IMG/VR virus record: IMGVR_UViG_3300037325_000356
Location: 1-63,906 of that record
From: a virus
Lineage: Duplodnaviria > Caudoviricetes
Length of the DNA stretch: 63,906 nt
Reading direction: 5' to 3' (one strand)
Shown here piece after piece: positions 1 through 63,906 of this stretch. The notes under the pieces are model-generated. The model was not told the DNA's origin. It worked only from the letters and a program-made list of their open reading frames with translations, and did not search any database. A program made the translations under genes and the position numbers. Position 1 is the stretch's first letter, and every line of letters starts with the position of its first letter.

Positions 1-8
1 TTCTAGTT

Positions 9-129
9 GTAGAGTTTGTCGTTTCTACCTTCTTACTATTAGTAAGAGATCTAAACGACAGACACAGCAACTAGAACTCGCTTCTAGTCAGTATTTTACC
101 TGACTCTAGTATTGGGGACTTTGGGCAAG
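9..129 (+). repeat. Terminal direct overlap with 63786-63906; also partial hairpin element copy 1
   Basis: 121 nt are identical to the window end. The overlap lies inside the multicopy element, so circularity is likely but not proven. Confidence 0.85.
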
Positions 130-171
130 AAAAAACCCGCGCGGGGCGGGTTTATTACGGGCGATCGACCG

Positions 172-840
172 TTAAATCTTGAAATCTATAACTTCATAGA
201 AAAATGATTCTATGCAATTCGCTACGGCATCACAAGGTTTCTCACCACGGCTGATCCGCACAGCCGCCGATTCCTGTACCGCACTGATCCGCCGTAAAGC
301 TTTACGCCCAAAACTGTCGCGGGTTAAAGCTACTGGGTTCCCTAGCTCTTCCTTTATCTGCTTTGCTGTCTTTCCAAACAATCCCCTGTTGATAGCGTCA
401 ATAGGTGTCGAATAGTGGAAAAACGAGATCTCCTTACCCGCAGCCTCGCGACTTTGTTTGATAGCTGATGTGAACTCCCAAAACAGCTCCTTAACCGCAA
501 GGCGATCCACTATCCAAGCTTGACGCTCTTCTAGTCCTAACTCGATCCCTAATTGTTCAAAGGCGATTGACCGGATTGAATCCCCAAAACCCGCAGCTAA
601 TATTTTGGCAACTTCTATATTTTGGTTAACCGATGATTCCCATGTGGCGATCGCTAGAAAATCTTCCAGTGAAATTAAAGCAACTTTGGGAGTGCCATCA
701 GTTTTTTTATTGACAATGATTCCGGTAAATTTGCCGATAACTAAATCCTTGCCCAGAAAGGCTTTGAGCGATTTAGAGGCGATTTTTTTCCGATAACTGT
801 CTGCCCTGTAATTGAGAATGACTTCTGGGGACTCATGCAC
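172..840 (-). CDS. Antirepressor-like DNA-binding protein, possibly 5'-truncated
   Basis: C-terminus (FTSAIK...DAINRGLFGKTAKQI) resembles 6008-6724 and 62555-63304. It lacks the usual N-terminal part and has no ATG start. Confidence 0.55.
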   Translation of the reverse strand: MHESPEVILNYRADSYRKKIASKSLKAFLGKDLVIGKFTGIIVNKKTDGTPKVALISLEDFLAIATWESSVNQNIEVAKILAAGFGDSIRSIAFEQLGIELGLEERQAWIVDRLAVKELFWEFTSAIKQSREAAGKEISFFHYSTPIDAINRGLFGKTAKQIKEELGNPVALTRDSFGRKALRRISAVQESAAVRISRGEKPCDAVANCIESFFYEVIDFKI

Positions 841-907
841 CGGAAGTTTACGCTTTGCGGTGCTTTCTATCTAAGAAAAAACCCGCGCGGGGCGGGTTAG
901 GTGCTGT

Positions 908-1630
908 CTATTTGGTGGATGTTGAGTCTATAAGGGCGATCGTCTCATCGTGATTTTTCCCTGACGATCGCAGCATATGATAGCTGTAATAAGTGCGATT
1001 CAATTGCTCCATTAGTGCATAGTCATCTGGGTTGTAATCGTCAATATGTTTTAAAGACAATCCTGCCGCTGTCTTCAATTTGTTAACCTCAGCCCCGTAG
1101 TTGACGGTAATCGAGAGTTTGTCGCCGTCTTCTTTTAGCCAGTCGGTGAACATATCACGAAACTGTTGCCGATGAGTTTGACGCGCGACAATCACACGCT
1201 GGCGGTCTTCTTTCTCACGTTTGATGTTGAAAGCATCCGCCCAAAGCTGATCTATTGCGACACCAATTAGGTCGTCACAGGTATCTGTTGCCGATTCATA
1301 CCCGGCTTTGTCCAACACTCTCAATATGCGCTGGAAGTCGATCAAGTTTACTGCTAAAGTTTTGTTTTTGTTAAATTCGGTCTTACAATCAAAAAAGACT
1401 ACTTGGGGGGTCTTGGAACCCTTAGCTAGTAATCGTTTCAAGGTTTGAGCCGTGTAATTTTGTGTGTCTTGATTCAACCAGTTGATGCCTATTTGGGGAA
1501 CGCCGATCGCGAAACTCCCATCATCTTCTAGCATCAAACCTTCAAACCCTAAATTCCCGATACTGACTGTGGCGATCGTAGCTTTGCGTGTTATAGCCTT
1601 GCCGTTAAAATCGTGTGGTATGATAGCCAT
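908..1630 (-). CDS. Antirepressor-like DNA-binding protein
   Basis: N-terminus RKATIATVSIGNLGFEGLMLEDDGSFAI is paralogous to 6008-6724; it is preceded by the conserved leader. Confidence 0.65.
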   Translation of the reverse strand: MAIIPHDFNGKAITRKATIATVSIGNLGFEGLMLEDDGSFAIGVPQIGINWLNQDTQNYTAQTLKRLLAKGSKTPQVVFFDCKTEFNKNKTLAVNLIDFQRILRVLDKAGYESATDTCDDLIGVAIDQLWADAFNIKREKEDRQRVIVARQTHRQQFRDMFTDWLKEDGDKLSITVNYGAEVNKLKTAAGLSLKHIDDYNPDDYALMEQLNRTYYSYHMLRSSGKNHDETIALIDSTSTK

Positions 1631-1652
1631 AGTTGCCTTGTTTGATAAGGGG

Positions 1653-1740
1653 ACTCAATGCACCGGAAATTCAAGTTTCGCGGTGCTTTTTCTATTGTAG
1701 CATAATGGCAAAGGTTTGCACTAAAATGCGGTGACGATCG
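1653..1740 (-). promoter_or_regulatory. Conserved promoter plus hairpin leader (also 831-868 partial, 6748-6830, 63327-63405)
   Basis: Minus strand reads ATGCTACAAT (extended -10) then GCACCGCGAAAC...TTCCGGTGC; near-identical upstream of four related genes. Confidence 0.7.
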
Positions 1741-1885
1741 CGCCCTGAGACTCCATTTTGTAGGAGCCTTGCACGGTTGTGAAACCCGCTCCCAGTATAT
1801 CTTCTAAGCCTTTTGGGAGCCTTTTCGACCGGGTGGTAGATTCGTTCAATCCGATGCTTTCTGCAAGCCCTGCACCTGAGAGAGA
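1735..1885 (-). pseudogene. Silent variant segment of the 62555-63304 gene family
   Basis: Translates LSGAGLAESIGLNESTTRSKRLPKGLEDILGAGFTTVQGSYKMES; no start codon. Confidence 0.8.
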
Positions 1886-1889
1886 ATTG

Positions 1890-2547: not shown

Positions 2548-2693
2548 AGAAGCGAGGTTAGAAGTCCTTCACACTTACTGTAGAGTCTGTCGTTTGAATA
2601 GTCTTACTATTAGTAAGAGATCCAAACGACAGACACATCAGGTAGGACTCGCTTCTATTCTACCTTTTACCTGACTCAATACATGAGTCAGGT
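2548..2693 (+). repeat. Hairpin element copy 2 with tail
   Basis: AGAAGCGAG...GTCTGTCGTTT...CTTACTATTAGTAAG...AAACGACAGAC...CTCGCTTCT, then CCTGACTC-AATACAT-GAGTCAGG. Confidence 0.95.
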
Positions 2694-2761
2694 TTTGGTA
2701 AAATTGAAGGGAAAAAGTGCCACCCGCCCGGTAGGTTCCAGCCGCCCGATCGGGAGCATCG

Positions 2762-3085
2762 AGCGTTCAGACAACCGTTCAGCCGTGTTCAGCCGTGAAC
2801 GCATCTGAACGGTTACAGGGAGGGGCGTTCAGGCGTTCAGACGAGCGTTCAGAAAATTTAATGAGAGGCTTTTAGAGGCGTTCAGACACTCTGAACGACT
2901 GAATAATCGAACACCGTGCGATCGGTTCTAACTGGCACAGTGCGCGACGTTCAGACGTTCAGACAAGAGTTCAGCCGTGTTCAGCCGTGAACGCATCTAA
3001 ACGGTACAGTGCGCGAGGTTCAGGCGTTCAGACAAGCGTTCAGACTAGCGTTCAATACTCTGAACGCCTGAATAATCGAATTCAA
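2762..3085 (+). repeat. GCGTTCAG/CTGAACG array A
   Basis: Dense CGTTCAG units at about 7-13 nt spacing; homologous to arrays B-D. Confidence 0.9.
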
Positions 3086-3136: not shown

Positions 3137-3285
3137 AGAAGCGAGGTTAGAAGTCCTCACCGTTACTGTAGAGTCTGTATTTTAATTTGTCTTACTATTA
3201 GTAAGAGATCCAAACGACAAGCACAGCAGGTAGAACTCGCTTCTAGTCTCCCTTTTACCTGACTCAATACATGAGTCAGGTTTTG
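3137..3285 (+). repeat. Hairpin element copy 3
   Basis: Same nested palindrome and tail. Confidence 0.95.
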
Positions 3286-3359: not shown

Positions 3360-3758
3360 ATGTTTGAGAATGCAGAGACAGCATTAGCCACGGCTAAACG
3401 CTGGGGAAATATTACAGATCCGGCGTTCGATCCTGACTTAATATTGCTCCTAGCCGCATCAAAAGCTATCGAAAGTTTCCGCCCTTTTGCGGTGGCGGCG
3501 TTCTGGATTGCAACAGGTGCTACCACTACCAGAGGTTTACTTTATGAGGCGACAGGTGAAGCTAAATTTTTAAAACCGGAAGAGTTAGATCAACTAATTC
3601 TGCGGCTGTTAGCGCTCCAAGAGGGATTTGATTCTAACTTAACAGGCATTCCCGGTGGGTGGGATCTAACAGGATTGAAAGCGACATTGTGCAAAGGCTG
3701 CACGTCTGAAGAATCGATCAATCCTATCCCTTTTAGTTATGGGTTGCTGACTATTTAA
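3360..3758 (+). CDS. Hypothetical protein, possible head-tail adaptor
   Basis: Clean 132-aa ORF followed by a terminator; function guessed from size and helical character. Confidence 0.45.
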   Translation: MFENAETALATAKRWGNITDPAFDPDLILLLAASKAIESFRPFAVAAFWIATGATTTRGLLYEATGEAKFLKPEELDQLILRLLALQEGFDSNLTGIPGGWDLTGLKATLCKGCTSEESINPIPFSYGLLTI

Positions 3759-3766
3759 TTCCACAC

Positions 3767-3795
3767 AAAACCCGCTAATTTTTATTAGCGGGTTC
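3767..3795. terminator. Bidirectional intrinsic terminator
   Basis: AACCCGCTAAT...ATTAGCGGGTT between convergent genes. Related A-tract/CCCG...CGGG hairpins recur near 130, 875, 5960, 9595, 12886, 15680, 21454, 22507, 25975, 26800, 28456, 35415, 45305, 60705 and 62510. Confidence 0.8.
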
Positions 3796-3813
3796 TGTGT
3801 TTCAGATCTTCGA

Positions 3814-4176
3814 TCAATACCCTACAAAATAGGCATCATCTTCTGGATCTATGTCGTCATCATCATCATCAAATAGATCGTCATCATCACCAAATAGATC
3901 GTCATCATCACCAAATAGATCGTCAGTTTCTGCTAAAAGATCGTCATCATCACCAAGTAAGTCGTCATCATCTTCAAGTAATTCGTCATCATCTTCAAGT
4001 AATTCGTCATCATCTTCAAGTAAGTCGTCATCGGACTCGGACTCGTCACCAAAAAGATCGTCGTCATTGTCATTAAATAAAGATTGCAATTCTTCTTGTT
4101 CTTGCACTTCATCCAGAACCCATAAAGCATAACTGTTTTTATCCGCAGTTTTTTCGATCTTGCTATTTTTAGGCAT
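3814..4176 (-). CDS. Extremely acidic heptad-repeat protein (DDDDLFG/EDDDELL)
   Basis: GA-rich leader and ATG start; 21-bp tandem repeats at about 3850-4070. Confidence 0.7.
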   Translation of the reverse strand: MPKNSKIEKTADKNSYALWVLDEVQEQEELQSLFNDNDDDLFGDESESDDDLLEDDDELLEDDDELLEDDDDLLGDDDDLLAETDDLFGDDDDLFGDDDDLFDDDDDDIDPEDDAYFVGY

Positions 4177-4222
4177 TGTCTTTCTCTCTCTCTCTCTGTT
4201 TTTTTACCGGTACTTGATTGTC

Positions 4223-4555
4223 TCAGCTATTAATCAGCAGCGATCTAATTTGCTGACAAACCCAGATATAAACTTCCACATTGCACCACATCGCAAAGTC
4301 GATCGCTACATCTTTATTTCCCCAAATCCCCCGCTCTTCTGGGGTTCCATGCCGTACCACTTCCATTACAGGATCACCCGTCACAGTTGAAAGCACAAAT
4401 AGGGAATCGCACTTGTCTTTGAGTCTTGGATAACTGTCTGCTTTTTTACCTACCGCTTCTGCTAAATCCGACAAGCTCACCCACAAATCACCATCTCGGT
4501 TATCAAATCGAATCGCATTCGTACCATTAAGTTTTAAAAACGTTAAATCAGACAT
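4223..4555 (-). CDS. KilA-N domain protein
   Basis: WVSLSDLA...GIWGNKDVAIDFAMWCN; TTGACA promoter at 4613-4618. Confidence 0.8.
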   Translation of the reverse strand: MSDLTFLKLNGTNAIRFDNRDGDLWVSLSDLAEAVGKKADSYPRLKDKCDSLFVLSTVTGDPVMEVVRHGTPEERGIWGNKDVAIDFAMWCNVEVYIWVCQQIRSLLINS

Positions 4556-4680: not shown

Positions 4681-5502
4681 CTAACCAACTACAGAAGACA
4701 ACAGGATAATGTCATCAGGTAGGACTTGCGGTGCTGTTGCCCAATCGGTTGAGGCAATAATGAGATTAGAAGCGGGTAATGTCAGATTAGCTTCATAGAC
4801 ACCGCTAACAGCTTGCAAGGCTCCTATTATCTGCTTAACGACAACATCTTTTCCCATACTTGCTCCGACGCTCTGAATGTACGTGTTAAGTGCCGCAGCG
4901 CACCGTTCTTTGATCGTGTTTATATCAGCCGTTGAATAAGTAGTAATTGTTGCGGCTATCTGAAAATTGATAATTGTGGGAGCTTCTACAGTAAAAACTA
5001 CCAATGTTGGCTTCACTTTGGGATCTGTCAATGCTGCTAGAACTGTTGCTATCAAACCAGCGGACGGTAAACCAGTCTTAGTTATAAATTTCACCGAGAC
5101 GGACGGTGCTACTGTCAAAATAACAGCAACATCGGTAATACTTGGATCAACTCGTTTTACTATTGTTTCAATTTGCTCTTTAGTGCCCGCTGTTGTAAAG
5201 GCTGATGGAGCACTCATTACTCGCAGTCTATAATCATCGTCTGTCTCATTTAACCGTCGGGAAAGACCAAATAACACGCCGATTTCGTCTAGTCTTTCCC
5301 CTAGCGCAAAGTTGATCAATCCGCCTTCAGCCGATCGCTGGATTGATCCGTTTTGCAATCCTGACAGAAATGCTATAACCTCTAACATTATATTTTCTGG
5401 GGTTCCCACAGCGGCGGGTTCATTCCCCAAGTCTTCCCACTTCTGGAATGCTGCTGTCCGTAGTGATGCTGCCGTCTGTCCTGTTAAATTTGGTGCTACC
5501 AT
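4681..5502 (-). CDS. Baseplate J/gp47 family protein
   Basis: ALGERLDEIG...RRLNETDDDYRLR...FTTAGT motif typical of P2 gpJ. Confidence 0.9.
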   Translation of the reverse strand: MVAPNLTGQTAASLRTAAFQKWEDLGNEPAAVGTPENIMLEVIAFLSGLQNGSIQRSAEGGLINFALGERLDEIGVLFGLSRRLNETDDDYRLRVMSAPSAFTTAGTKEQIETIVKRVDPSITDVAVILTVAPSVSVKFITKTGLPSAGLIATVLAALTDPKVKPTLVVFTVEAPTIINFQIAATITTYSTADINTIKERCAAALNTYIQSVGASMGKDVVVKQIIGALQAVSGVYEANLTLPASNLIIASTDWATAPQVLPDDIILLSSVVG

Positions 5503-5661
5503 CTGTTCTCTTCTGACTTTGTTGCCTCTTATCATAGCCTTAAGGCCACATCGCAACCTCAAAACGTAGGTTTTCCCCGACAGCACCTTCAGACGGCTTT
5601 AACCGGGAAAATGAGTCTTAATCTCTCACCGATCGCCCCGCCCGGTGCACCGTCAATTTTT

Positions 5662-5810
5662 AGAAGCGAGTTCACAATTCCTTCACCTTTACTGTAGAGT
5701 CTGTCGTTTAAGTTGTCTTACTATTAGTAAGAGATCCAAACGACAAGCCCATCAGGTAGCACTCGCCTCTAGTCTCCCTTTTACCTGACTCAATACATGA
5801 GTCAGGTTTT
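5662..5810 (+). repeat. Hairpin element copy 4
   Basis: Same nested palindrome and tail. Confidence 0.95.
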
Positions 5811-6007: not shown

Positions 6008-6724
6008 TTAAGAGTAAAAGTCGATCGCGTCAGTGACTGCTAACAGCGGTTCCAGCCCTCTGTCTATCAACCTCACGGCGTGACCTTCAATTCTGTCTAT
6101 CAACACCAAAGATGCGGCACTATGGGTACTTCTCAGTTCATTTCTGTCGCACGATCGCTCTGCACAAAGTTTGGCTGCTGTTTTCCCGAATAGCGATCGG
6201 TTGATTTTGTCTGAGCAATTCGAGTACACGAACTTTCGGTAATTCTCCGAGACTTCATTTTGCTTGCCCAAATATTCCTTTATTGCGTCGGTCAAAGTGC
6301 GACGGGTAATTTTCCCGGCTAGTCGGGCGGTTAGATATTCTTGCCGATTGTGCTTGTCAAATTCAATCCCAAATGCGTCTGAGAATAACTGGGTGAGTGC
6401 TAGTCCGACTAATGCAAGGTTTAACTCAAGAGCTTTTTTGTTTCCCCTTGAGGACAAAACTACAATGACTTTCTCAAACTCCAAAAGTGTAACACAGTTG
6501 ACAGCCTTTGGGTTCAATGTAGTACGCGCTTTGGATAACTGGAAATCCTCACCCAGTATAGCTTTGATGTCTCTTGATGCGTGAACTTTGGATAACTGGA
6601 ATATACTACAAATCTGTGAAACTGCTACCGCATATTCCCCATTATCCTCAAACCTGAGACCTTCTATTTCCAAAGTTCCCATTTTGACGATCGCGATCGT
6701 AGCTTTGCGTGTTAGAATACTCAT
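6008..6724 (-). CDS. Antirepressor-like DNA-binding protein
   Basis: N-terminus is like 908-1630; the C-terminal ~105 aa are nearly identical to 62555-63304. Confidence 0.7.
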   Translation of the reverse strand: MSILTRKATIAIVKMGTLEIEGLRFEDNGEYAVAVSQICSIFQLSKVHASRDIKAILGEDFQLSKARTTLNPKAVNCVTLLEFEKVIVVLSSRGNKKALELNLALVGLALTQLFSDAFGIEFDKHNRQEYLTARLAGKITRRTLTDAIKEYLGKQNEVSENYRKFVYSNCSDKINRSLFGKTAAKLCAERSCDRNELRSTHSAASLVLIDRIEGHAVRLIDRGLEPLLAVTDAIDFYS

Positions 6725-9439: not shown

Positions 9440-9580
9440 AGAAGCGAGTTCACAATTCCTTCACCTTTACTGTAGAGTCTGTCGTTTAAGTTGTCTTACT
9501 ATTAGTAAGAGATCCGAACGACAGACACATCAATTAGAACTCGCTTCTAGCATACCTTTTACCTGACTCTAGTATTGAGG
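9440..9580 (+). repeat. Hairpin element copy 5
   Basis: Same nested palindrome. Confidence 0.95.
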
Positions 9581-9641
9581 ACTTTTGCCAAGAAAAAACC
9601 CGGCGATCGGGAGATCGTCGGGTTGTTTTAGGCAGGTGTGT

Positions 9642-9866: not shown

Positions 9867-9943
9867 CTTTTTCTCTCTCGTTACTGTTCTCTTTAAAAGA
9901 TAGCACACCCAAACACTTTATGTCAATACTTTTTTAATTCTTC

Positions 9944-10085
9944 AGAAGCGAGGTTAGAATTCCTCACCGTTACGGTAGAGTCTGTCGTTTTTACCTTCTT
10001 ACTATTAGTAAGAGATCCGAACGACAAACTCATCAATTGGAACTCGCTTCTAGTCAGCATTATACCTAACTCTAGTATTGTGGAC
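9944..10085 (+). repeat. Hairpin element copy 6
   Basis: Same nested palindrome. Confidence 0.95.
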
Positions 10086-12178: not shown

Positions 12179-12183
12179 GGTTT

Positions 12184-12622: not shown

Positions 12623-12734
12623 TTTGGTCTCTCTCTTTTTTCTCTTGTTCGATCGTAACACATGGTAATACTTTATGTCAACCCTTCCCAAAGCTATTAA
12701 AAATTGAAAGACCGCCCGCCCGATCGGTCAAGAC

Positions 12735-12875
12735 AGAAGCGAGGTATCAAGTCATCACCTTTACTGTTGTGTCTGTCGTTTCTACCTTCTTACTATTAGT
12801 AAGAGATCCAAACGACAGACACAGCAACTAGAACCCGCCTCTATCCTCCCTTTTACCCGGCTCATGTATTGTGGA
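12735..12875 (+). repeat. Hairpin element copy 7
   Basis: Same nested palindrome. Confidence 0.95.
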
Positions 12876-13638: not shown

Positions 13639-13730
13639 GACGGTTCTCTCTCGCTAATTTTCCGATCCGGCGATCGCACGTTAGTCTTATTTTAGCATAC
13701 GCAAACACTTTATGTCAATGGTCTTTATCC

Positions 13731-13870
13731 AGAAGCGAGGTATCAAGTCATCACCTTTACTGTTGTGTCTGTAGTTTAAGTTGTCTTACTATTAGTAAGA
13801 GATCCAAACGACAAACACAGCAACTAGAACCCGCTTCTACTCTACCTTTTACCCAACTCAAGTATTGGGG
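13731..13870 (+). repeat. Hairpin element copy 8
   Basis: Same nested palindrome. Confidence 0.95.
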
Positions 13871-15340: not shown

Positions 15341-15636
15341 ACCGTTCGGTTGAGTTCACGGTTGAGTTCACGGTTGAGTCTGTCTGAACGCTCGGCTGAC
15401 CCATTTTTCGGGTTAAGGTGGAGAGGAAATTGAAACCTCGCTTCTGTCTTGACCGATCGGGCGGACGGGCCATTCTAATCGACAAAGCCAAAAACAAAAA
15501 ACCGGGTAAAATGTCATTTTCTACCCGGTTTTTTATGTTTTGGGCATGACAACTCTTTGTATTCTGAATCCAGACAGAGACAGAGACGCGGCGATCGGAT
15601 GCTGTTAAAACTTCCATATTTTCAACAAATAGGTAC

Positions 15637-20353: not shown

Positions 20354-20492
20354 AGAAGCGAGGTTAGAAGTCCTCACCGTTACTGTTGTGTCTGTCGTTT
20401 CTACCTTCTTACTATTAGTAAGAGATCCGAACGACAGACACATCAATTAGAACTCGCTTCTAGGTTGTGTTTTACCTGACTCTAGTATTCGG
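20354..20492 (+). repeat. Hairpin element copy 9
   Basis: Same nested palindrome. Confidence 0.95.
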
Positions 20493-20913: not shown

Positions 20914-21058
20914 AGAAGCGAGTTCACAATTCCATCACCACCTTTACTGTAGAGTCTGTAGTTTAAGTTGTCTTACTATTAGTAAGAGATCCAAACGACA
21001 AACTCATCAGCTAGAACTCGCCTCTAGTCAGAACTTTACCTGACTCTAGTATTGAGGA
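20914..21058 (+). repeat. Hairpin element copy 10
   Basis: Same nested palindrome. Confidence 0.95.
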
Positions 21059-21298: not shown

Positions 21299-21440
21299 AG
21301 AAGCGAGTTCACAATTCCATCACCACCTTTACTGTAGAGTCTGTGTTTTAATTTGTCTTACTATTAGTAAGAGATCGAAACGACAAACTCATCAGCTAGA
21401 ACTCGCCTCTAGTCAGCACTTTACCTGACTCTAGTATTCG
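21299..21440 (+). repeat. Hairpin element copy 11
   Basis: Same nested palindrome. Confidence 0.95.
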
Positions 21441-22283: not shown

Positions 22284-22355
22284 CTTTTTTCTCTCTCTCG
22301 TTACTGTTTTTTCAGTCTACCACACACAAACACTTTATGTTAATGGTTTGTATTC

Positions 22356-22495
22356 AGAAGCGAGGTATCAATTCCTCATCGTTACTGTAGAGTCTGTCGT
22401 TTTTACCTTCTTACTATTAGTAAGAGATCCAAACGACAGACACAGCAACTAGCACCCGCTTCTATCCTCCCTTTTACCTGACTCTAGTATTGAGG
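22356..22495 (+). repeat. Hairpin element copy 12
   Basis: Same nested palindrome. Confidence 0.95.
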
Positions 22496-24985: not shown

Positions 24986-25126
24986 GAATACTAGAGTCGG
25001 GTAAAAGGTAGACTAGAAGCGAGTTCTAGTTGCTGTGTCTGTCGTTTGGATCTCTTACTAATAGTAAGAAGGTAGAAACGACAGACTCAACAGTAAAGGT
25101 GAAGAGGAAATTGTGAACTCGCTTCT
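24986..25126 (-). repeat. Hairpin element copy 13 (inverted)
   Basis: GGATCTCTTACTAATAGTAAG core. Confidence 0.95.
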
Positions 25127-26013: not shown

Positions 26014-26151
26014 CCAATACATGAGTCAGGTATAATGCTGACTAGAAGCGAGTTCTAGTTGCTGTGTCTGTCGTTTGGATCTCTTACTAATAGTAAGAAG
26101 GTACAAACGACAGACACAACAGTAACGATGAGGAATTGTGAACTCGCTTCT
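26014..26151 (-). repeat. Hairpin element copy 14 (inverted)
   Basis: Same core. Confidence 0.95.
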
Positions 26152-29863: not shown

Positions 29864-30012
29864 AGAAGCGAGGTATCAATTCCTCACCTTTACTGTAGAG
29901 TCTGTCGTTTGTACCTTCTTACTATTAGTAAGAGATCCAAACGACAGACACAACAGGTAGGACTCGCTTCTAGTCTCCCTTTTACCTGACTCAATACATG
30001 AGTCAGGTTTTT
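29864..30012 (+). repeat. Hairpin element copy 15
   Basis: Same nested palindrome and tail. Confidence 0.95.
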
Positions 30013-34590: not shown

Positions 34591-34738
34591 AGAAGCGAGG
34601 TATCAATTCCTCACCTTTACTGTTGTGTCTGTCGTTTCTACCTTCTTACTATTAGTAAGAGATCCAAACGACAGACACAACAACTAGAACTCGCTTCTAG
34701 TCTACCTTTTACCTAACTCAATACATGAGTCAGGTTTT
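34591..34738 (+). repeat. Hairpin element copy 16
   Basis: Same nested palindrome and tail. Confidence 0.95.
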
Positions 34739-37079: not shown

Positions 37080-37228
37080 AGAAGCGAGGTATCAAGTCCT
37101 CATCTTTACTGTTGAGTTTGTCGTTTCTACCTTCTTACTATTAGTAAGAGATCCAAACGACAGACACAGCAACTAGAACCCGCCTCTAATCTACCTTTTA
37201 CCTGACTCAATACATGAGTCAGGTTTTG
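37080..37228 (+). repeat. Hairpin element copy 17
   Basis: Same nested palindrome and tail. Confidence 0.95.
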
Positions 37229-44960: not shown

Positions 44961-45107
44961 AAACCTGACTCATGTATTGAGTCAGGTAAAAGGGAGGATA
45001 GAAGCGGGTTCTAGTTGCTGTGTCTGTCGTTCGGATCTCTTACTAATAGTAAGAAGGTAGAAACGACAAACTCTACCGTAACGGTGAGGACTTCTAACCT
45101 CGCTTCT
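44961..45107 (-). repeat. Hairpin element copy 18 (inverted)
   Basis: Same core and tail. Confidence 0.95.
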
Positions 45108-45342: not shown

Positions 45343-45480
45343 CAATACTAGAGTCAGGTAAAATACTGACTAGAAGCGAGTTCTAGTTGCTGTGTCTGTC
45401 GTTTAGATCTCTTACTAATAGTAAGACAACTTAAACTACAGACTCTACAGTAAAGGTGAAGGAATTGTGAACTCGCTTCT
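45343..45480 (-). repeat. Hairpin element copy 19 (inverted)
   Basis: Same core. Confidence 0.95.
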
Positions 45481-53897: not shown

Positions 53898-56800
53898 ATG
53901 CCTGATCTAAAAATTACAGTGACTGTAGATGATTCTGCTGTATCAGCTTTAGAAGGCAGACTAAGAGGGTTGTCTGGTGCTGCTAGTGGTGTTGGTGGTG
54001 TTGGAGGTTCGGCAACATCTCAGACTCAAAAATTCGGTGAAAGTCTGCAAAGTGTAGGCGGCGCTATGTCAACTTTGGGCGGGTTAACATTAGCAGCAAC
54101 TGCACCCGCAATAGCCGGATTTGGAGCGTCGGCAAAAGCCGCAATTGATTATGAATCCGCACTCGCAGATGTTCAGAAAATTTCAGATTTCAAGGCGGGG
54201 ATGGGTAGCGACTTCTCTAATGGTTTACTCGAATTATCGGCAAGTTTAGGGAGTGTTAACCCTAACGATTTGGCCGCTATATCGGCTGGTATGGTAAGAC
54301 CTGGGCAGAGTGCACAAGACCTGTTATTAGCATCTGAAGCCGTATCGAAAATGGGTGTAGCTTTCAATATGAGTGCGGCAGATTCCGGTAAAGCATTAGG
54401 CAAGTTATCCACAGCTTTTAAAGTGCCTGCACGGGATATGAAAACTTTTGTGGGAGGGCTTAACGAATTATCAAACAAGACAGGGATTGCAGGGAAAGAT
54501 TTAGTTAATTTTATGTCGAGTAGTTCTGAATTAGCGGGTAGAATGCCAGCAACCGACGTAGCGGCAATGGGCACGGCCTTAATTAGCGCGGGTATAGCCT
54601 CAGCTAGAAGCGGGCGATCTATCTCGTCTATATCCTCTAAGTTGATGATGGCTAGCAGCTTATCAAATAAAGCTAAAGCCTCTTTTAAAGATATGGGAGT
54701 AAGTGCTAAAGACTTGGAAGCTGATGTCTCAAAGCGCGGCGCACCGGCTATTGTTGACTTTTTAGAAAAAATCAACAAAATACCGACAGCCGCCAAAAAA
54801 ACCGAGGCATTGAATAACATTTTTGGTGCTGACTTTGCACGAACGGCTGGGGTATTAGCTAATAATTTGGGACAGGTTAGAAGCAACTTGAAAGCAGTTT
54901 CAGATCAGAAAGCGGTAGCCTCGTCAGTTGATAGAGAATATGCAGTCAGGCAAGCAACAACAGCTAACCAATTAAAAACATTTGGTGCAACAGCACAAAG
55001 AGTCGGGATCGCAGTAGGATCGGGGCTTTTGCCTGCTATTAATGACGTGGGAAAGGCGGTTCTGCCGATGGCTAATGAGTTTGCAAAATTTGCTACCGCT
55101 AACCCAGGTATTGTAAAAAATGCTGTAGCGTTTACTGGGGTTGCAGCGGCGGGCGGTTTGGCTTTAAGCGTCGCGGGTAGTCTCGCAACCTCGATCGGCG
55201 CGATCGCCACCGCAGCACCTATTATCGGAGGCGCGGTTGCAGGCATCGGAGGGGCGGTAGTAGGGGCGGGCGGCGCGGTAGTAGGTGCTGGCGTGGCAAT
55301 GGGCACCGCTTTGGTTGGTATCGGATCGGCCGCTGTGAGTGTTGGAGGCGCGGTAGTAGGTGCTGGCGTTTCGATGGGAACCGCTGTTGTTGGAGCGGCA
55401 ACAGGAGCCGCCACACTAGCAGGCAGTTTATTATCAATTCCAGCCGTCGGTTTGGCCGCAGCAACAGTCGCAGGTTTAGGCTTAGGTGTCGCCATCCACA
55501 AAGCGATTAACCCAGCAACCGATCTAAATACTATTATTCCTGATATAGGCTTAGGTGCTAAGCAATCGTGGCAAGATGTCAGCACTGCCGGATCTCAACT
55601 TTGGAGCGATTTAAAACTCGGAGGCAAACAAACATTAACAGATTTAGGAAGCGGTTTCACTTCAGTTAAAGATACTGTTGGATCGGCTTTTACAGGTGTT
55701 ACCGAGTCCGTCGGCTCTGCTTTTACAGGTGCTTTAACAAACGTGACCGGGTTTGTTACTTCGATCGGTACAAGTTTCTCGACTGTCGGAACTACTATCA
55801 GCACAGCTTTTTCTACAGTCGGAACCTCTATTAGCACAGCGTTTACAGGCGCTTTAACAAACGTGACCGGGTTTGTTACTTCGATCGGTACAAGTTTCTC
55901 GACTGTCGGAACTACTATCAGCACAGCCTTTTCTACAGTCGGAACCTCTATTAGCACAATCTTTACAGGATTAGGTTCAACTATTACCGGGTTTGTTACT
56001 TTGATCGGTACAAGTTTCTCGACTGTCGGAACTACTATCACTACAGCCTTTTCTACAGTCGGAACCTCTATTAGCACAATCTTTACAGGATTAGGTTCAA
56101 CTATTACCGGGTTTGTTACTTCGATCGGTACAAGTTTCTCGACTGTCGGAACTACTATCACTACAGCCTTTTCTACAGTCGGAACCTCTATTAGCACAAT
56201 CTTTACAGGATTAGGTTCAACTATTACCGGGTTTGTTACTTCGATCGGTACAAGTTTCTCGACTGTCGGAACTACTATCACTACGGCCTTTTCTACAGTC
56301 GGAACCTCTATTAGCACAATCTTTACAGGATTAGGTTCAACTATTACCGCTTTTGTTACTTCCGTTAGCACTGCATTTTCTACAATCGGAACCTCGATCA
56401 GCACGGCAATGAGTGCCGCAATGACTAGCGTACAATCTGCGGTTTCAGGGATGCAAACAGCCATATCGACTATGGCTTCCAGTATTCAAACAGCTTTTTC
56501 TACAATGGGTACAGCCATCAGTACCGCGATGTCCGGTGCTTTGACTGCCATACAGGCATCTATTACCAGTATTCAAAGCGCGATCTCTGCAATGGCAACC
56601 TCTATGCAGGCTAGCTTTGCTGCTGCGGGTGCGGCCATGCAATCAGGAATGACGGCGGCTGTTGCTGGCGTTCAAGCTGCTTTGACTGGGTTATCTTCAG
56701 CCGCTAGTGCTGCCGGATCAGCTTTAGCGGCCGCTGCAAATTCTGCCGTCGGAGCGTGGCAAGCTTTAGCAGGTGCTATTGGTGCAGCCGTTTCTGCTGC

Positions 56801-57125
56801 ACAGAGCGCCGCTACTGCTGTTGCTGGGGCGGCTAGTAGTGCTGCTAGTGCAGTTGCTGGTATTGCAGGCGGCGGTGCCAAGGGTGTGTCTAGCGGTGCT
56901 AAAGGCTTAGACGCTTCTCCTTCTCCGTTCCCTCGCTATACCGCACCCGGTGGCCTCGGAGGCGGTGCAACTAATATCAATTTCTCACCACAAATCGGAG
57001 TGAATGGCGTTTCCTCTTTCAATGCGAGGGATTTTATCCGCGAATTGCGATCGCATGAATCCGAATTTGCAAACTACCTTAGTAGTCTCACTAACAGACA
57101 AAATCGCTTTAAATATTCCGATTGA
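53898..57125 (+). CDS. Tape measure protein (TP901-like)
   Basis: AAIDYESALADVQK, Ala/Gly-rich, 11/18-residue aromatic periodicity. Confidence 0.95.
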   Translation: MPDLKITVTVDDSAVSALEGRLRGLSGAASGVGGVGGSATSQTQKFGESLQSVGGAMSTLGGLTLAATAPAIAGFGASAKAAIDYESALADVQKISDFKAGMGSDFSNGLLELSASLGSVNPNDLAAISAGMVRPGQSAQDLLLASEAVSKMGVAFNMSAADSGKALGKLSTAFKVPARDMKTFVGGLNELSNKTGIAGKDLVNFMSSSSELAGRMPATDVAAMGTALISAGIASARSGRSISSISSKLMMASSLSNKAKASFKDMGVSAKDLEADVSKRGAPAIVDFLEKINKIPTAAKKTEALNNIFGADFARTAGVLANNLGQVRSNLKAVSDQKAVASSVDREYAVRQATTANQLKTFGATAQRVGIAVGSGLLPAINDVGKAVLPMANEFAKFATANPGIVKNAVAFTGVAAAGGLALSVAGSLATSIGAIATAAPIIGGAVAGIGGAVVGAGGAVVGAGVAMGTALVGIGSAAVSVGGAVVGAGVSMGTAVVGAATGAATLAGSLLSIPAVGLAAATVAGLGLGVAIHKAINPATDLNTIIPDIGLGAKQSWQDVSTAGSQLWSDLKLGGKQTLTDLGSGFTSVKDTVGSAFTGVTESVGSAFTGALTNVTGFVTSIGTSFSTVGTTISTAFSTVGTSISTAFTGALTNVTGFVTSIGTSFSTVGTTISTAFSTVGTSISTIFTGLGSTITGFVTLIGTSFSTVGTTITTAFSTVGTSISTIFTGLGSTITGFVTSIGTSFSTVGTTITTAFSTVGTSISTIFTGLGSTITGFVTSIGTSFSTVGTTITTAFSTVGTSISTIFTGLGSTITAFVTSVSTAFSTIGTSISTAMSAAMTSVQSAVSGMQTAISTMASSIQTAFSTMGTAISTAMSGALTAIQASITSIQSAISAMATSMQASFAAAGAAMQSGMTAAVAGVQAALTGLSSAASAAGSALAAAANSAVGAWQALAGAIGAAVSAAQSAATAVAGAASSAASAVAGIAGGGAKGVSSGAKGLDASPSPFPRYTAPGGLGGGATNINFSPQIGVNGVSSFNARDFIRELRSHESEFANYLSSLTNRQNRFKYSD
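55720..56400 (+). repeat. 120-bp (40-aa) tandem repeat, about 5.5 copies, in the tape measure gene
   Basis: Near-identical sequence every 120 nt. Confidence 0.95.
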
Positions 57126-57130
57126 ATCCA

Positions 57131-57268
57131 CCAATACATGAGTCGGGTAAAAGGTAGATTAGAAGCGAGTCCTACCTGTAGAGGCTGTCGTTTGGATCTC
57201 TTACTAATAGTAAGAAGGTAAAAACGACAGACTCTACAGTAACGGTGAGGACTTCTAACCTCGCTTCT
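57131..57268 (-). repeat. Hairpin element copy 20 (inverted)
   Basis: Begins about 6 nt after the tape measure stop codon. Confidence 0.95.
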
Positions 57269-57801: not shown

Positions 57802-58581
57802 TTATCGATTATCAAAATAATTACAGATCGCTGTGTCTAACTCTTCAGTTACCCTGTAGACACCAATCAATCTTTGCGTACCATTGCACAAGCGCGACTC
57901 ATTTTTTCTTGCGTCTGTTCGGGAGATCGGGATAGCCATGCTGACTGCCTTCCCTAGTTCCGGTCGGTACTCTGTTACCATCGAGATCGGATAACCCAAC
58001 TGTTCGGCACGTTCGGCCACACCACACCAAACCTCGCTATCTTCAGCTTTAAGCGCGGGTTGACCGACTCCGAGCATATCCATTGAAAAGTCTTGTAGAT
58101 GCTGCTTAAATCGCGGGTTATTGATGTCTATTTCTAGCCTGTCCAATATTTTGAAAAGTTCCACTAAACGAATATCAGCAGGTGGAAGTTGTAGCGGTTT
58201 TGGTTCTGGCGGCGCGATCGGCTGTTCGACTTCATATTTCCCCGTCTTGCGGATACTGGGGATAACTTCTGCATGAATCCATCGGTTTAATGCTTTTCCT
58301 AGCTCAGTGCGAGAGCGCGAAACAAACATTGTCAGGGCGGGTTCTGACAGGATTAGCATATTTTGATCCCGCTCGATAGTGTCGGAGATGAGTTTGTTAG
58401 TAAAAAAGTCATCTCCCAAATCCTCCCGTATCATAGCTTCTACCGCCGTGACTGTTGTACTAGACCCGATCGCCTGCAATATATCTTTAGCCACAAACCA
58501 GGGTTCGCCATTGATCGTAACAATTCGGACTTGATTGCTTTCAAACTCAAACTCAAACTCAAACTTTGCTAGAAGAGACAT
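57802..58581 (-). CDS. BRO-N domain antirepressor-like protein
   Basis: VRIVTINGEPWFVAKDI...LSEPAL...WIHAEVIPSIRKTGKY. Confidence 0.92.
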   Translation of the reverse strand: MSLLAKFEFEFEFESNQVRIVTINGEPWFVAKDILQAIGSSTTVTAVEAMIREDLGDDFFTNKLISDTIERDQNMLILSEPALTMFVSRSRTELGKALNRWIHAEVIPSIRKTGKYEVEQPIAPPEPKPLQLPPADIRLVELFKILDRLEIDINNPRFKQHLQDFSMDMLGVGQPALKAEDSEVWCGVAERAEQLGYPISMVTEYRPELGKAVSMAIPISRTDARKNESRLCNGTQRLIGVYRVTEELDTAICNYFDNR

Positions 58582-60302: not shown

Positions 60303-60549
60303 TCACCACCTTTCTTTTTTGCTTCTTTAAGCTATCACGCGACAAAGGTTTATGTCAAGGGTTTCGGTAAAATATTTTTAAAACAGGCTCTAACCTTGAC
60401 CCCATATAGAACTGAGTTAGGAGTGAATGGCCCGATCGGTCAAGACAGACTCATCTAGCATTATTTTAGAGCTTGGTTAACTGTCTGGCAGTCAAACATT
60501 TTTACTACAATCGTACTATGCACATAGCTAGAACCTAGCAAAAATGCTT

Positions 60550-60690
60550 AGAAGCGAGTTCACAATTCCATCACCTTTACTGTTGTGTCTGTCGTTTCTA
60601 CCTTCTTACTATTAGTAAGAGATCCAAACGACAGACACAGCAGCTAGAACTCGCTTCTAATCTAACTTTTACCTGACTCTAGTATTGAGG
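60550..60690 (+). repeat. Hairpin element copy 21
   Basis: Same nested palindrome. Confidence 0.95.
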
Positions 60691-60722: not shown

Positions 60723-61655
60723 CTAGATTCTGAGAACAGCGATCGCGCCGTAAACTTCGGGTTCACCTGCAATATTAGCGGGTGCTCCTAGCGTGTTTAA
60801 AGCTATTGGGTTTGTGGCTTCAACCATTGTCTCGATCGAGAAACTATTCGCGCTTGAAAGCGTAAACGCCGCCTCAAAATAAGAGAAGCCGTTGAAATCG
60901 TCACCTGACAAGGTGGAAGCGACGTTAGAGCCTTTGTAGATGGTATTTGTAGTTCTATTTACAAATTGAGACTTGAACCGTCCACAGACTGCACAACTGA
61001 TATATCCCCAAACAACGTAAGAGCCCGGTTGTAGCGTGACTCTGCCGTTAGAAAGTCCGATCGAACTGGTACTCTTTACTGTCGTTGTGAAACCTCTTTC
61101 TACCCAAATAGAGGGAGCCGCAGATCCGCCACCTGTACCTGTCGCTGCTTGTATTTGATAGCAAGCTGTCGCCATCCTGTCAGATCCGCTCGGTGAATTG
61201 CTCCAACCAAAAGCCCCATTACTTGTAACTTCTATGACTTTACCCTGTTGCTTTCCTAATGTTACCAACTCCGCAAGCCTAGGGGAAAATTCTAGAACCG
61301 AAACGCCCACTACATACTGATCCGACTCAATCTTTAGGTTTGTTGCGTTAGTTGATAGCGCAGGATATTCTGTCAATCTGATCGGTATTAATTCCTCTAT
61401 TGTTGTTAGTTTCTCTCGTGATTGTTGATTCTGAGTGAAAGTGTTTGTCTGTAAAGTTCTTAATGATTGAAGGCTTGTTAGATAGGCTGTCGCTGCTGTT
61501 ATCTGTACGTTCAAAGCTGCTAAATGTGCAGAGGCCTCTGTAGTTGCATTTTCGATTACTGTCTTGTTTGCGAGATTTAAAGCAGACAGCTCGTTAACTA
61601 TCTGATTGAAATTAGCAGCAAGGTTTGTATCTGTTCTTTCTAACTGGTTAACCAT
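60723..61655 (-). CDS. Fibre-like virion protein (paralogue 3 of 3)
   Basis: LAELVTLGKQQG, GTGGG...WVERGFTT...TLQPGSY, EVYG. Confidence 0.65.
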   Translation of the reverse strand: MVNQLERTDTNLAANFNQIVNELSALNLANKTVIENATTEASAHLAALNVQITAATAYLTSLQSLRTLQTNTFTQNQQSREKLTTIEELIPIRLTEYPALSTNATNLKIESDQYVVGVSVLEFSPRLAELVTLGKQQGKVIEVTSNGAFGWSNSPSGSDRMATACYQIQAATGTGGGSAAPSIWVERGFTTTVKSTSSIGLSNGRVTLQPGSYVVWGYISCAVCGRFKSQFVNRTTNTIYKGSNVASTLSGDDFNGFSYFEAAFTLSSANSFSIETMVEATNPIALNTLGAPANIAGEPEVYGAIAVLRI

Positions 61656-61660
61656 TCTTT

Positions 61661-62023
61661 TTACCTGACTTTTTGTGAAGCGTCTTCTATTAAGTTAACA
61701 TCTATTACCATCCGAGTGATAATTCCGTTTAATTCCTTGCTGTATACTGCATCTATTTTTGCGATGCCGAAAATACCTTCTAGATCGGTTCCCGGTTGCC
61801 CAAAACCAAAACCACGAGCCGTCCCTAAGTCCGCAGCGTCACGCCACAATTTAACCCGCTGTCTTGAATTTGCACCGTTAAAATTCAACCGCAATTTTGC
61901 CGCCCGCGCTTTTCTTCCCAAAAACTGAGAAGACCTAAACCCGGTGATTATATTGTACTCGTCTGCAAATTCGCATGATATTAATTCTTGGTCATGAATT
62001 GTTATCGTTCCAAAAAATGCCAT
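61661..62023 (-). CDS. Tail tube initiator (P2 gpU-like)
   Basis: QFLG...LRLNF...GIFGI...IDVNLIE. Confidence 0.6.
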   Translation of the reverse strand: MAFFGTITIHDQELISCEFADEYNIITGFRSSQFLGRKARAAKLRLNFNGANSRQRVKLWRDAADLGTARGFGFGQPGTDLEGIFGIAKIDAVYSKELNGIITRMVIDVNLIEDASQKVR

Positions 62024-62092
62024 TGACAAATCCTCAATTGTATGTAAAGCTTTTATGTACACAGACAAAACCAAGAGACAATAGTTGACATA

Positions 62093-62500
62093 ATGATGTG
62101 TAGTCAATGCCATCTCAACCCAAGACCCGCCGCGACTGTCTCCACTTGCAATCATACACGTTTTGATTCTTGGTGCGATGAATGCTTTGTTACTCGAAAG
62201 CTAACCGATATTTTCCCACAATGTACCAAAGAGGATATCGACAATTTAGAGAGTATTCAAAAAGACAGAAAGCAGAAAAGATTCGACAAGGTGCAGATCA
62301 CCGAGTTGACATCAAAGCTAGCAAAACTTAGACGCGAAAAGACAGGCGGTTTCGATTATACCTACGGTGCTAAGGCAGAGACTGAATCTGATTTACTTGA
62401 CGAACTCGATAAACTCTCAAAACGTACAAAAAGACAAGCCTCTGACACTGAATTGCATCGGCAACAACTCGAAAGTATCTATGATTATCTAGACGATTAA
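62093..62500 (+). CDS. Hypothetical zinc-finger protein
   Basis: CSQC...CNH...CDEC; followed by a terminator. Confidence 0.6.
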   Translation: MMCSQCHLNPRPAATVSTCNHTRFDSWCDECFVTRKLTDIFPQCTKEDIDNLESIQKDRKQKRFDKVQITELTSKLAKLRREKTGGFDYTYGAKAETESDLLDELDKLSKRTKRQASDTELHRQQLESIYDYLDD

Positions 62501-62554
62501 ACTACAACAAAAAACCCGTCAAATCTTAGACGGGTTTTTTGTATCTGTTCGCAA

Positions 62555-63304
62555 TCAAGAGTAAAAGGCGATCGCGTCAGTGACAGCTATTTGCGGTTCC
62601 AGCCCTCTGTCTATCAACCTCACTGCGTGACCTTCAATTCTGTCTATCAACACCAAAGATGCGGCACTATGGGTACTTCTCAGTTCATCTCTGTCGCACG
62701 ATCGCTCTGCACAAAGTTTGGAGGCTGTTTTCCCGAATAGCGATCGGTTGATTTTGTCTGAGCAATTCGAGTACACGAACTTTCGGTAATTCTCCGAGAC
62801 CTCGTTAGTCTCCAAATATTCCTTTATTGCGTCTGTCAAAGTGCGACGGGTAATTTTCCCGGCTAGTCGGGCATTAGTCTTAGCCTCTGCCGCGCCCTGT
62901 TCATAAATCCGACCAAACCGATCGTCAATAATGATATCTAAAGTTGTGGCAATTAATGCCGTGACGATCGCGCCTGCAAGAATATTGTTCTGTTTGTCAT
63001 GGTATCGGTAATAGATGGCTGCGCTTGTGGTATCCCACAGGTTGAGCTTTGACTTACCGCCTGACTCCATTTTGTACTGCCCTTGCAACGTTGTGAAACC
63101 CGCTCCCAGCATAGCTTTGAGGTCTTCAGACAGCCGATTTTGCAACGTTGTGGAACGGTTCAATCCGATACTTTCTGCAAGCCCTGCACCTGAGAGATAA
63201 TTGATAAATTTCCCGGTAGTTGAAGAGATTTGATTAGCCGTGTAAGCGTCGATCGCGATCGAGCCGATGTAGATTTCTGTCTTGAAAACTGTTAGAATTG
63301 TCAT
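62555..63304 (-). CDS. Antirepressor-like DNA-binding protein
   Basis: NYLSGAGLAESIG N-domain; C-domain shared with 6008-6724. Confidence 0.7.
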   Translation of the reverse strand: MTILTVFKTEIYIGSIAIDAYTANQISSTTGKFINYLSGAGLAESIGLNRSTTLQNRLSEDLKAMLGAGFTTLQGQYKMESGGKSKLNLWDTTSAAIYYRYHDKQNNILAGAIVTALIATTLDIIIDDRFGRIYEQGAAEAKTNARLAGKITRRTLTDAIKEYLETNEVSENYRKFVYSNCSDKINRSLFGKTASKLCAERSCDRDELRSTHSAASLVLIDRIEGHAVRLIDRGLEPQIAVTDAIAFYS

Positions 63305-63417
63305 CAGTTCGCCTGCTTTATAGGTTGACTCATGCACCGGAAATTCAAGTTTCGCGGTGTTTTTTTATTGTAGCATAATAGCAAAGGTTTGCACTAAAAT
63401 GCGTTAAGGAAGTGTTG

Positions 63418-63689
63418 AGCTTGTGGTATCCCACAGGTTGAGCTTTGACCATGAGTTTTGAGTGTTTTTGTACTGCCCTTGTAACGTGGTAAAACCCGCT
63501 CCCAGCATAGCTTTGAGGTCTTCAGACAGCCGATTTTGTAACGTGGTATTTCTGTGTAATCCGATACTTTCTGCAAGCCCCGCACCTGAGAGATAGTTGA
63601 TAAATTTGCCTGTCGCGGGGTCAATCTCATTAGCCGTGTAACCGTCAACTGTTACCGCGCCGATCGCAAATTCTGTCTTGAAAACTGTC
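63418..63689 (-). pseudogene. Silent variant N-domain of 62555-63304
   Basis: TVFKTEFAIGAVTVDGYTANEID...KLNLWDTTS; lacks the native start and lies upstream of the promoter. Confidence 0.85.
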
Positions 63690-63753
63690 TGGCAGTCAAA
63701 CATTTTAACTACAATCGTACTATGCACATAGCTAGAACCTAGCAAAAATGCTT

Positions 63754-63906
63754 AGAAGCGAGTTCACAATTCCCTCACCGTTACGGTAGAGTTTGTCGTT
63801 TCTACCTTCTTACTATTAGTAAGAGATCTAAACGACAGACACAGCAACTAGAACTCGCTTCTAGTCAGTATTTTACCTGACTCTAGTATTGGGGACTTTG
63901 GGCAAG
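63754..63906 (+). repeat. Hairpin element copy 22 (same as copy 1 if circular)
   Basis: Same nested palindrome. Confidence 0.95.

Follow-up and report, generated by a model that had tools for sequence, protein, structure and literature searches.

Dispersed palindromic repeats have been described in several phage and bacterial genomes. In T4-type phages, PeSL (promoter-early stem-loop) cassettes are dispersed intergenic units of a promoter and a stem-loop that act as exchange points (PMC2839356, PMC4122927). Cluster O mycobacteriophages carry more than 30 copies per genome of a 17-bp repeat, an invariant 7-bp inverted repeat with 3-bp spacing, which was predicted to bind a dimeric protein (PMC4351075; PMC6439249). 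In REPINs, two inverted repetitive extragenic palindromes (REPs) form a long hairpin (PMC3116915, PMC3337134). Here we analyse a large palindromic element that recurs throughout the genome of a tailed phage, IMG/VR record IMGVR_UViG_3300037325_000356; the window is the whole record (63,906 bases, rated 96% complete). The element is polar and lineage-specific, lies at transcription-unit borders and is absent from the long virion operons. We favour, at roughly even chances, the explanation that it is a non-coding boundary element of one cyanophage-like myovirus lineage, which serves as a homology patch for PeSL-like shuffling of gene cassettes and whose centre is probably a protein operator. While the cassette concept itself is already known from PeSLs, the element family is new.

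The 17-mer core TCTTACTATTAGTAAGA was found 22 times in the window without a single mismatch (17 on the + strand and 5 on the - strand, each read in the element's own orientation), compared to 0.02 occurrences in shuffled sequence. A reading made from the sequence alone, without database searches, had counted 22 copies, 17 in one orientation and 5 inverted. The core matches bear out this number, but the two ends of the contig overlap (9-129 = 63786-63906) and the matches at 31 and 63808 therefore belong to one element, leaving 21 distinct full copies (16 on +, 5 on -) and one truncated relic, at about one element per 3 kb. Each full copy takes the form of a three-tier imperfect palindrome with three nested stems, running from AGAAGCGAG to CYCGCYTCT over 108-112 bp in 21/21 cases, followed by the 21-nt tail TTTTACCTGACTC with 0-2 mismatches. 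Standard pairs occupy 96.9% of the 546 pair cells (26 pairs), whereas sliding the partners by 1-3 columns reduces this value to 40-51%, and folding gives mean z-scores of about -6.4 to -6.7, whichever strand is taken. At the apex, the invariant centre forms a 7-3-7 palindrome in all 22 matches of the 17-mer, while neither of the outer arms, AGAAGCGAG and CTCGCTTCT, forms a palindrome by itself. Outside the centre the copies vary, with pairwise identities of 77.5-96.2% (mean 86%). The hairpin length, nested stems, conserved tail and invariant centre proposed by the sequence-only reading all stand.

The open reading frames (ORFs) that overlap copies are all short (60-128 aa). They were read as chance frames because they are short and because the frame differs between copies; none of them was scanned against protein families. 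Coding potential of the element itself was considered and set aside: inspection showed that the invariant core closes one of the three frames with a stop codon and that copies differ by indels of 1-4 nt, which put them out of frame with one another. The description of the element as essentially intergenic is upheld on this basis.

To describe the surroundings of the copies we use the term gene-sense for the reverse complement of the orientation adopted by the sequence-only reading, whose sense proved to be antisense to most flanking genes. Read in the gene-sense direction, a co-directional gene start lies downstream of 17/21 copies (one-sided binomial p ~0.004, hand arithmetic) and a co-directional stop lies upstream of 14/21. 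The element therefore has a preferred polarity, with its tail side toward a gene stop or terminator and its head side toward the promoter or start of the next gene. No copy is present at 37.2-45.0 kb, which holds a tail-fibre/replication operon, or at 45.5-57.1 kb, the operon running from capsid to tape measure. Many of the genes that do flank copies have no family match.

The repeated unit is larger than the sequence-only reading had it and extends past the hairpin, with shared terminator modules on the tail side and modules resembling promoters or leaders on the head side. Neither side of the long hairpin carries a T-run directly after it; instead, separate terminator-like hairpins adjoin. 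In the tail module of type A, which directly follows 7/21 copies, a 13-mer makes up one arm of a small hairpin, CCTGACTC-AATACAT-GAGTCAGG, and is followed by TTTT. In the other copies (type B) the second arm has decayed, the loop is flipped (TAGTATT, ATGTATT or AAGTATT) and a GC-rich two-way terminator lies 30-40 nt further on. The loop forms AATACAT and ATGTATT/TAGTATT are mutually reverse-complementary (compare 2670 with 12856), as if the whole small hairpin had been inverted in some copies. At e9494, e12788, e22409 and e26082 the tail is separated from the upstream stop by a GC-rich terminator with a T-run, and most window copies, read in the gene-sense direction, have a strong terminator ahead of the long hairpin.

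Several flank modules recur on the head side. One contains TTGACA or TTAACA, an 18-nt spacer and TAnnnT, reading away from the element; these sigma-70-like sites lie outside the conserved hairpin, 12-53 nt past the head of e9997, e12788, e13784 and e22409. Another is rich in copies of the highly iterated palindrome HIP1 and then continues with CTCCTATATTCC. A further one, present at two copies, is an insert of ~105-113 bp placed exactly between GGTCAAGAC-AGA and AGA-AGCGAG (9328-9439 and 60442-60549) and ending in the short inverted sequences TAGCATT...AATGCT; at 12727 and 37072 the junction is intact, as GGTCAAGACAGAAGCGAG. Possibly, the insert represents another mobile element, a small one with the head as its target. 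Several small genes also share a purine-rich leader, ACGAGAGAGAG, ahead of their start codons. On the opposite side, four non-coding arrays of CGTTCAG/CTGAACG-type heptamers (2764-3066, 14928-15390, 20568-20859 and 37295-37688; 17-24 motifs each) each lie ~85 nt past the tail side of either an element or the relic, and look like iterons for a DNA-binding protein.

The copies are mosaic and have swapped sequence blocks with one another. The pairwise homoplasy index (PHI) was 0.662 compared to 0.953 (sd 0.028) after permutation, with 0/2000 permutations as low (p<0.0005), and 1304 of the 1891 informative site pairs were incompatible. This supports the proposal that discrete alleles were combined by recombination between copies. 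Every head-side flank class that was found more than once, in our own classing of rows, pairs with both tail types. Identical runs of at least 31 nt occur in 113/210 copy pairs, and the copies probably serve as substrates for homologous recombination. Blocks of alleles stay linked across the centre (from reading the rows, not from a statistic) and incompatibilities are spread along the element, a pattern that fits homologous exchange rather than one crossover point. In public Logan contigs of four sequencing runs, the assemblies break inside elements and fit several copies, and among the pieces listed none bridges an element. Joints and loose ends occur at elements in these contigs (e.g. 9439 to 22356), from which we draw nothing on rearrangement.

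Related phages were sought through the portal protein. Portal relatives at 56-76% identity, on contigs of up to 36 kb, exist in public protein data, and while the portal alignment gave no match in viral contigs, a scan of metagenome contigs with the same alignment recovered two ENA contigs, here called L004 (4,207 bp) and L005 (6,556 bp), with a portal 58% identical to that of the window. Model R1 detects five homologous hairpins on these contigs (19-45 bits), all on the portal-sense strand; the + strand of both contigs is equivalent to gene-sense in the window. Conserved with the relatives are the outer stem AGAcGCGAG/CTCGCTTCT, the inner stem TTTGTCGTTT/AACGACAAA and a block of the 3' arm, ACAGTAA.GGTGA.GGA, whereas the apex differs and is weakly palindromic, and the tail is not conserved. 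Since homologous hairpins are present in L004 and L005, the element family has long been part of this phage lineage rather than stemming from a recent host insertion. The hairpin at L005:1-74 lies at the 3' end of a homologue of window gene 33919-34494, in the same position and the same inverted orientation as e34644. Each of these two hairpins nevertheless resembles the other copies of its own genome, which indicates concerted evolution of positional counterparts. Terminase relatives led to distant loci (L001-L003), where model R1 finds no copy.

Comparison of the two related contigs with each other revealed a homology break. Over 2,842 bp, L004 and L005 differ by one mismatch (99-100% identity per 100-bp window). 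Identity then drops to ~25%, and the break falls within an element, immediately past the inner stem's 3' arm. Past this break, L004 continues with a homologue of window gene 3360-3758 and L005 with a homologue of the C-terminal part of 21504-22283, and further along L005 are homologues of 34831-35403 and 26835-27407. In the window, the first three of these genes adjoin elements at other places and 26835-27407 is one gene from a copy. L004 also carries, at 3609-4205, a HEARO (omega) RNA (162 bits, E 2.7e-35) followed by an RRXRR/IscB N-terminus (E 3.6e-45) that is cut by the contig end; this unit is absent from the window.

The sequence-only reading had suggested a structured family that it did not recognise, and database searches agree with it. 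Rfam gave 0 matches at gathering score over the window, and a permissive scan of 20300-22600 (4 copies, E up to 1) returned one chance microRNA match outside the elements. Nucleotide searches (blastn) against 50,697 phage records, with one window copy and a relative's copy, and against 72,556 plasmids were empty or gave chance matches. The exact 21-mer core was not found in viral, genome or metagenome contigs. Degenerate patterns in viral contigs gave nothing in one scan and nine loci in another, of which 0/9 were recognised by model R1, and exact plus degenerate patterns in 185,579 species genomes gave one locus, a chance match inside a coding region; these collection scans need exact matches, so that diverged host copies could escape them. 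No recombinase, integrase, transposase or reverse transcriptase was detected among the window ORFs scanned, 69 against Pfam and 30 against PHROGs, in line with the sequence-only reading, which had noted no evident recombinase, and the Pfam scans of the 69 ORFs contained neither a Y1 transposase nor a REP-associated tyrosine transposase (RAYT).

Set against the known systems, the element resembles PeSLs, one of the analogues named by the sequence-only reading, in its proposed mode of working, but it is not a PeSL. Both are dispersed in dozens of intergenic copies that combine a stem-loop with transcription signals, which in the present element are putative, both surround variable or unknown genes and are rare in core operons, and both mark exchange points between otherwise unrelated sequences in close relatives, although here this last likeness comes from one pair of contigs, L004/L005, where a chimera is possible. 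They differ in build. The PeSL is a short promoter-plus-terminator motif whose stem-loop overlaps or abuts the promoter boxes, whereas the present element is a 108-112 bp three-tier palindrome with a 7-3-7 centre, set between separate terminator and promoter modules, in a phage that is not T4-type. With the Cluster O repeat it shares the 7-3-7 geometry and the spread of copies over the genome. However, the Cluster O repeat consists of the 17 bp alone, one third of its copies fall in coding regions, it has no orientation bias and its authors regard it as not involved in the rearrangements seen (PMC4351075), whereas the present element has its 17-mer at the top of a much larger palindrome, found at gene borders with signs of exchange. 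REPs and REPINs resemble it as extragenic palindromic repeats of high copy number that form ~100-nt hairpins at gene ends (PMC3116915, PMC3337134, PMC3733652). REPINs are chromosomal, depend on a single-copy RAYT gene and consist of two inverted REPs, each palindromic and tagged, whereas this element resides in a virus genome. By definition it is not a REPIN, because no RAYT was found among the scanned ORFs and its arms are not palindromic REPs.

Under our preferred explanation, the ~20 dispersed copies would act as portable homology patches, at which general or phage-encoded homologous recombination would swap, move and invert gene cassettes. By analogy with the Cluster O repeat, the 7-3-7 centre is predicted to be an operator for a dimeric phage DNA-binding protein, and the bound operator would give each boundary a common regulatory or insulating role. 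The recombination role is partially supported: as a recombination site, the element has in its favour the homology break inside a copy and the relocated, element-flanked genes, while for an attC-like site-specific system no integrase was found among the scanned ORFs. Several observations weigh against this explanation. Three of the 21 copies are fully inverted (34644, 45038, 45410) and one (57199) lies between convergent genes. Promoter-like sites occur near the head in just 4/21 copies; elsewhere 8-430 nt separate the head from the gene start, with other modules between. Cassette order in the window depends on the original assembly being correct; the tie of each half-element to its adjacent gene is independent of that order. 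The L004/L005 break could be an assembly chimera at a repeat and concerns one pair only; coverage is 2-4x according to the contig names, and two copies in L005 (L005a and L005b) share ~40 identical bases across the junction. The relatives are without the invariant centre, so the operator is proposed only for the window phage. Finally, no compensatory change was found in the 26 pairs and covariation did not exceed that of shuffles (alignment of 21 copies), and for this reason the structural evidence extends as far as a palindrome.

A selfish origin has to be considered alongside this explanation. The element could be a non-autonomous mobile element similar to a REPIN or to a hairpin element derived from the insertion sequence family IS200/IS605, copied as a single-stranded DNA hairpin by a trans-acting transposase of the host or of a co-infecting element, with gene borders as tolerated sites. 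High copy number, hairpin form, occurrence in both orientations, extragenic location and a size near that of REPINs would all be expected, the HEARO and RRXRR/IscB unit shows IS200/IS605-family cargo in a related contig, and the insert at the head of two copies suggests small mobile DNA in this genome. The boundaries bear on this point as well. Target duplications, with which a match to a miniature inverted-repeat transposable element (MITE) had been named as grounds for rejecting the sequence-only reading, flank 0/21 copies (direct repeats of at least 2 nt at either candidate boundary). The element is therefore not a MITE, while Y1-type transposition fits the absence of target duplications. 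Yet no transposase of any kind was found among the 69 Pfam-scanned ORFs, the copies are mosaic and on average 86% identical, unlike a recent burst, and their flanks are themselves shared modules. Moreover, one position and orientation has been kept between phages whose portals are 58% identical, the scan of 185,579 species genomes gave no true match, and the outer arms are not palindromic REPs. We regard this origin as unlikely, while giving it real weight. Rather improbable, in our view, is a related alternative in which the hairpin is the substrate of a dedicated enzyme yet to be recognised, a single-strand hairpin transposase or structure-specific recombinase encoded by phage orphan genes or by the host; it would form an integron- or REPIN-like system moving virion, host-range and regulator cassettes within the genome and between co-infecting relatives. 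Site-specific recombination in the manner of integrons, an analogy raised by the sequence-only reading, would require a folded attC-like site with a single fixed point where a so far unrecognised recombinase of phage or host cuts and rejoins the DNA. Integron attC sites are imperfect palindromes bounding single-gene cassettes; the element has attC size, bounds single-gene cassettes (9642-9908, 12937-13638, 21504-22283 and 25371-25946) and contains a homology break. While attC sites conserve structure, this element conserves sequence, its blocks are linked across the centre, and conserved end boxes are absent at the alignment ends by inspection, the nearest look-alikes lying in polymorphic blocks and departing from the consensus. 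With no integrase among the scanned ORFs, the element is not an attC site, and we consider such a mechanism very improbable.

Two further explanations place the function of the element in RNA. It might be a cis-acting RNA on the gene-sense strand, a long 3' or intercistronic hairpin that blocks exonucleases, is cut by RNase III or attenuates read-through, comparable to the RNase III sites between phage T7 genes and to REP hairpins in bacterial operons. Its orientation is biased with transcription, and it begins close behind several stops: in L004 and L005 the portal gene ends 10 nt before it, and in the window the tape-measure gene ends 35 nt and, at e13784, the gp25-like gene 13879-14202 (-) ends 40 nt before it. 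No terminator is seen in between (for e13784 by inspection and scan), so the hairpin must be transcribed at those stops. On the gene-sense strand, 10 G-U cells that would be C-A mismatches on the other strand bring the pairing of the outer helix to 100%, and by raw folding energy the gene-sense strand is the more stable in 19/21 copies. This last preference vanishes against composition-matched shuffles (mean z-scores -6.36 vs -6.68), and over the outer and inner stems together the wobble cells number 16 vs 9 between strands. With no compensatory change either, an RNA family of the kind suggested by the sequence-only reading gains no support. In addition, a strong terminator stands ahead of the hairpin in most window copies, the stem sequences are conserved between lineages beyond their pairings, and four copies are inverted or convergent. 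We judge a cis-acting RNA unlikely; as to the level at which the hairpin acts, DNA or RNA, we state no preference. It is quite improbable that each copy is instead a small RNA gene in the orientation of the sequence-only reading, ending at the terminator past the tail. In that orientation the type A hairpin with TTTT is a one-way terminator directly after 7/21 copies, the GC-rich terminators of type B working both ways, and a weak promoter-like site, TTCACA-18-TAGAGT (9/12), lies inside the left arm of e9494. Against this, the boxes proposed as -35 and -10 fall in polymorphic blocks (the -10 being TAGAGT, TTGTGT or TTGAGT, so that about half of the copies are without the key A), the relatives have not kept the tail, and there is neither an Rfam match nor covariation.

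Table 1. Copies of the element in the window and on related contigs. The strand of window copies follows the orientation of the sequence-only reading.
Feature	Span	Strand	Remarks
Copy cut by contig start	1..106	+	Same element as 63754-63883
e2602	2548..2677	+	Hairpin 2548-2656 plus tail; type A terminator hairpin after it; CGTTCAG array beyond, 2764-3066
e3190	3137..3265	+	Type A tail side; tail toward start of 3360-3758 (+)
e5716	5662..5791	+	Between 6008-6724 (-) and baseplate J-like gene 4681-5586 (-)
e9494	9440..9569	+	Head side with ~105-113 bp insert between GGTCAAGAC-AGA and AGA-AGCGAG
e9997	9944..10072	+	TTGACA-18-TATCTT promoter-like site, - strand (9926..9897), 17 nt past head, ahead of 9642-9908 (-)
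e12788	12735..12863	+	Type B terminator on tail side; promoter-like site 12681..12652 (-) past head
e13784	13731..13859	+	TTGACA-18-TAAAAT (13718..13689, -) past head
Truncated relic	15410..15445 (about)	-	Head AGAAGCGAG plus ~26 nt of left arm, then CGTTCAG array
e20407	20354..20482	+	CGTTCAG array next, 20568-20859
e20971	20914..21046	+	112-bp hairpin
e21356	21299..21431	+	112-bp hairpin; 93 nt from stop of KilA-N gene 21504-22283 (-)
e22409	22356..22484	+	Between C5 methylase 22544-23608 (-) and KilA-N gene; TTAACA-18-TAGACT (22343..22314, -) past head
e25053	24994..25126	-	112-bp hairpin; head toward start of 25371-25946 (+)
e26082	26023..26151	-	Between stop of 25371-25946 (+), terminator 25975-25995, and start of 26301-26783 (+)
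e29917	29864..29992	+	Type A tail
e34644	34591..34719	+	Inverted relative to flanking + genes; 3' end of Tail_P2_I-like gene 33919-34494; counterpart L005:1-74
e37133	37080..37208	+	Type A tail; CGTTCAG arrays next, 37295-37688
e45038	44979..45107	-	Inverted relative to flanking - genes
e45410	45351..45480	-	Inverted; 24 nt from stop of 45505-46473 (-); 122-nt identical run with e63808
e57199	57140..57268	-	Hairpin 35 nt after tape-measure stop 57125; no terminator hairpin seen between (inspection only)
e60604	60550..60679	+	Head side with same ~105-bp insert as e9494
e63808	63754..63883	+	Same element as copy at window start
L004 copy	2737-2883		
L005 copy	1-74		Cut
L005 copy	3928-4068		
L005 copy	4975-5111		
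L005 copy	6428-6556		Cut

The genome that carries these copies belongs to a cyanophage-like myovirus lineage that is not T4-type. Its contig ends are identical over 121 bases (9-129 and 63786-63906), and despite the linear label of the record, the genome probably is a circle or has terminal redundancy, one unit measuring ~63,777 bp; the first 8 bases of the window resemble a fold-back artefact of the element's other arm. The virion genes include a large terminase with a T4-type fold (10775-12178), the portal (30729-32069), the tail sheath (51008-52354), the tape measure (53898-57125) and genes for tail tube, baseplate J, gp25-like, P2-I-like, major capsid and cement proteins. The phage is therefore contractile-tailed. 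Genes for a 1119-aa replication protein and a sliding clamp, Dam-type (35479-36291) and C5 DNA methylases, and several regulator-like genes (KilA-N, Bro-N, T5orf172, phrog_2657) were also identified. The octamer GCGATCGC, which we take to be the HIP1 palindrome and hence to indicate a cyanobacterial host, occurs 29 times compared to 0.54 in shuffles, and CGATCG occurs 158 times. Among the sequencing runs listed as containing parts of the window, nine are DNA runs from salt-lake or outdoor metagenomes and none is an RNA run.

Some neighbouring genes were noted in their own right. Three paralogous genes, 172-840, 6008-6724 and 62555-63337, have in common the C-terminal domain of the phrog_2657 'transcriptional regulator'; they lie directly beside a copy, 237 nt from one and one gene away, respectively, and their products are candidate binders of the element. 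The same candidacy extends to the KilA-N proteins (4223-4555 and 21504-22283), the Bro-N protein (57802-58581) and the T5orf172 protein (10320-10718). At 28492-28758 there is a small gene for an HNH_3 endonuclease. The orphan genes 45505-46473 and 60723-61655, whose proteins are not clearly paralogous, each directly adjoin an element. They were considered as hidden recombinases and set aside, as their ESM Atlas likenesses are instead to tail-fibre or C1q-like trimer proteins (feature scores ~0.9, TM ~0.5; leads only).

If the preferred explanation of the element as a boundary-marking homology patch is true, this phage lineage would be built of gene cassettes joined by one standard connector. 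Its density, one connector per ~3 kb, is far higher than that of bacterial REP elements. Such an organisation would explain the apparently scrambled order of the virion genes, and it would provide a route by which tail-fibre-like, regulator and orphan genes pass between phages in salt-lake mats. Being large and strongly structured, with an operator-like centre, the element offers a tractable handle for finding the protein that reads it, as well as for studying the insulation of neighbouring transcription units and for tracking recombination in natural phage populations.

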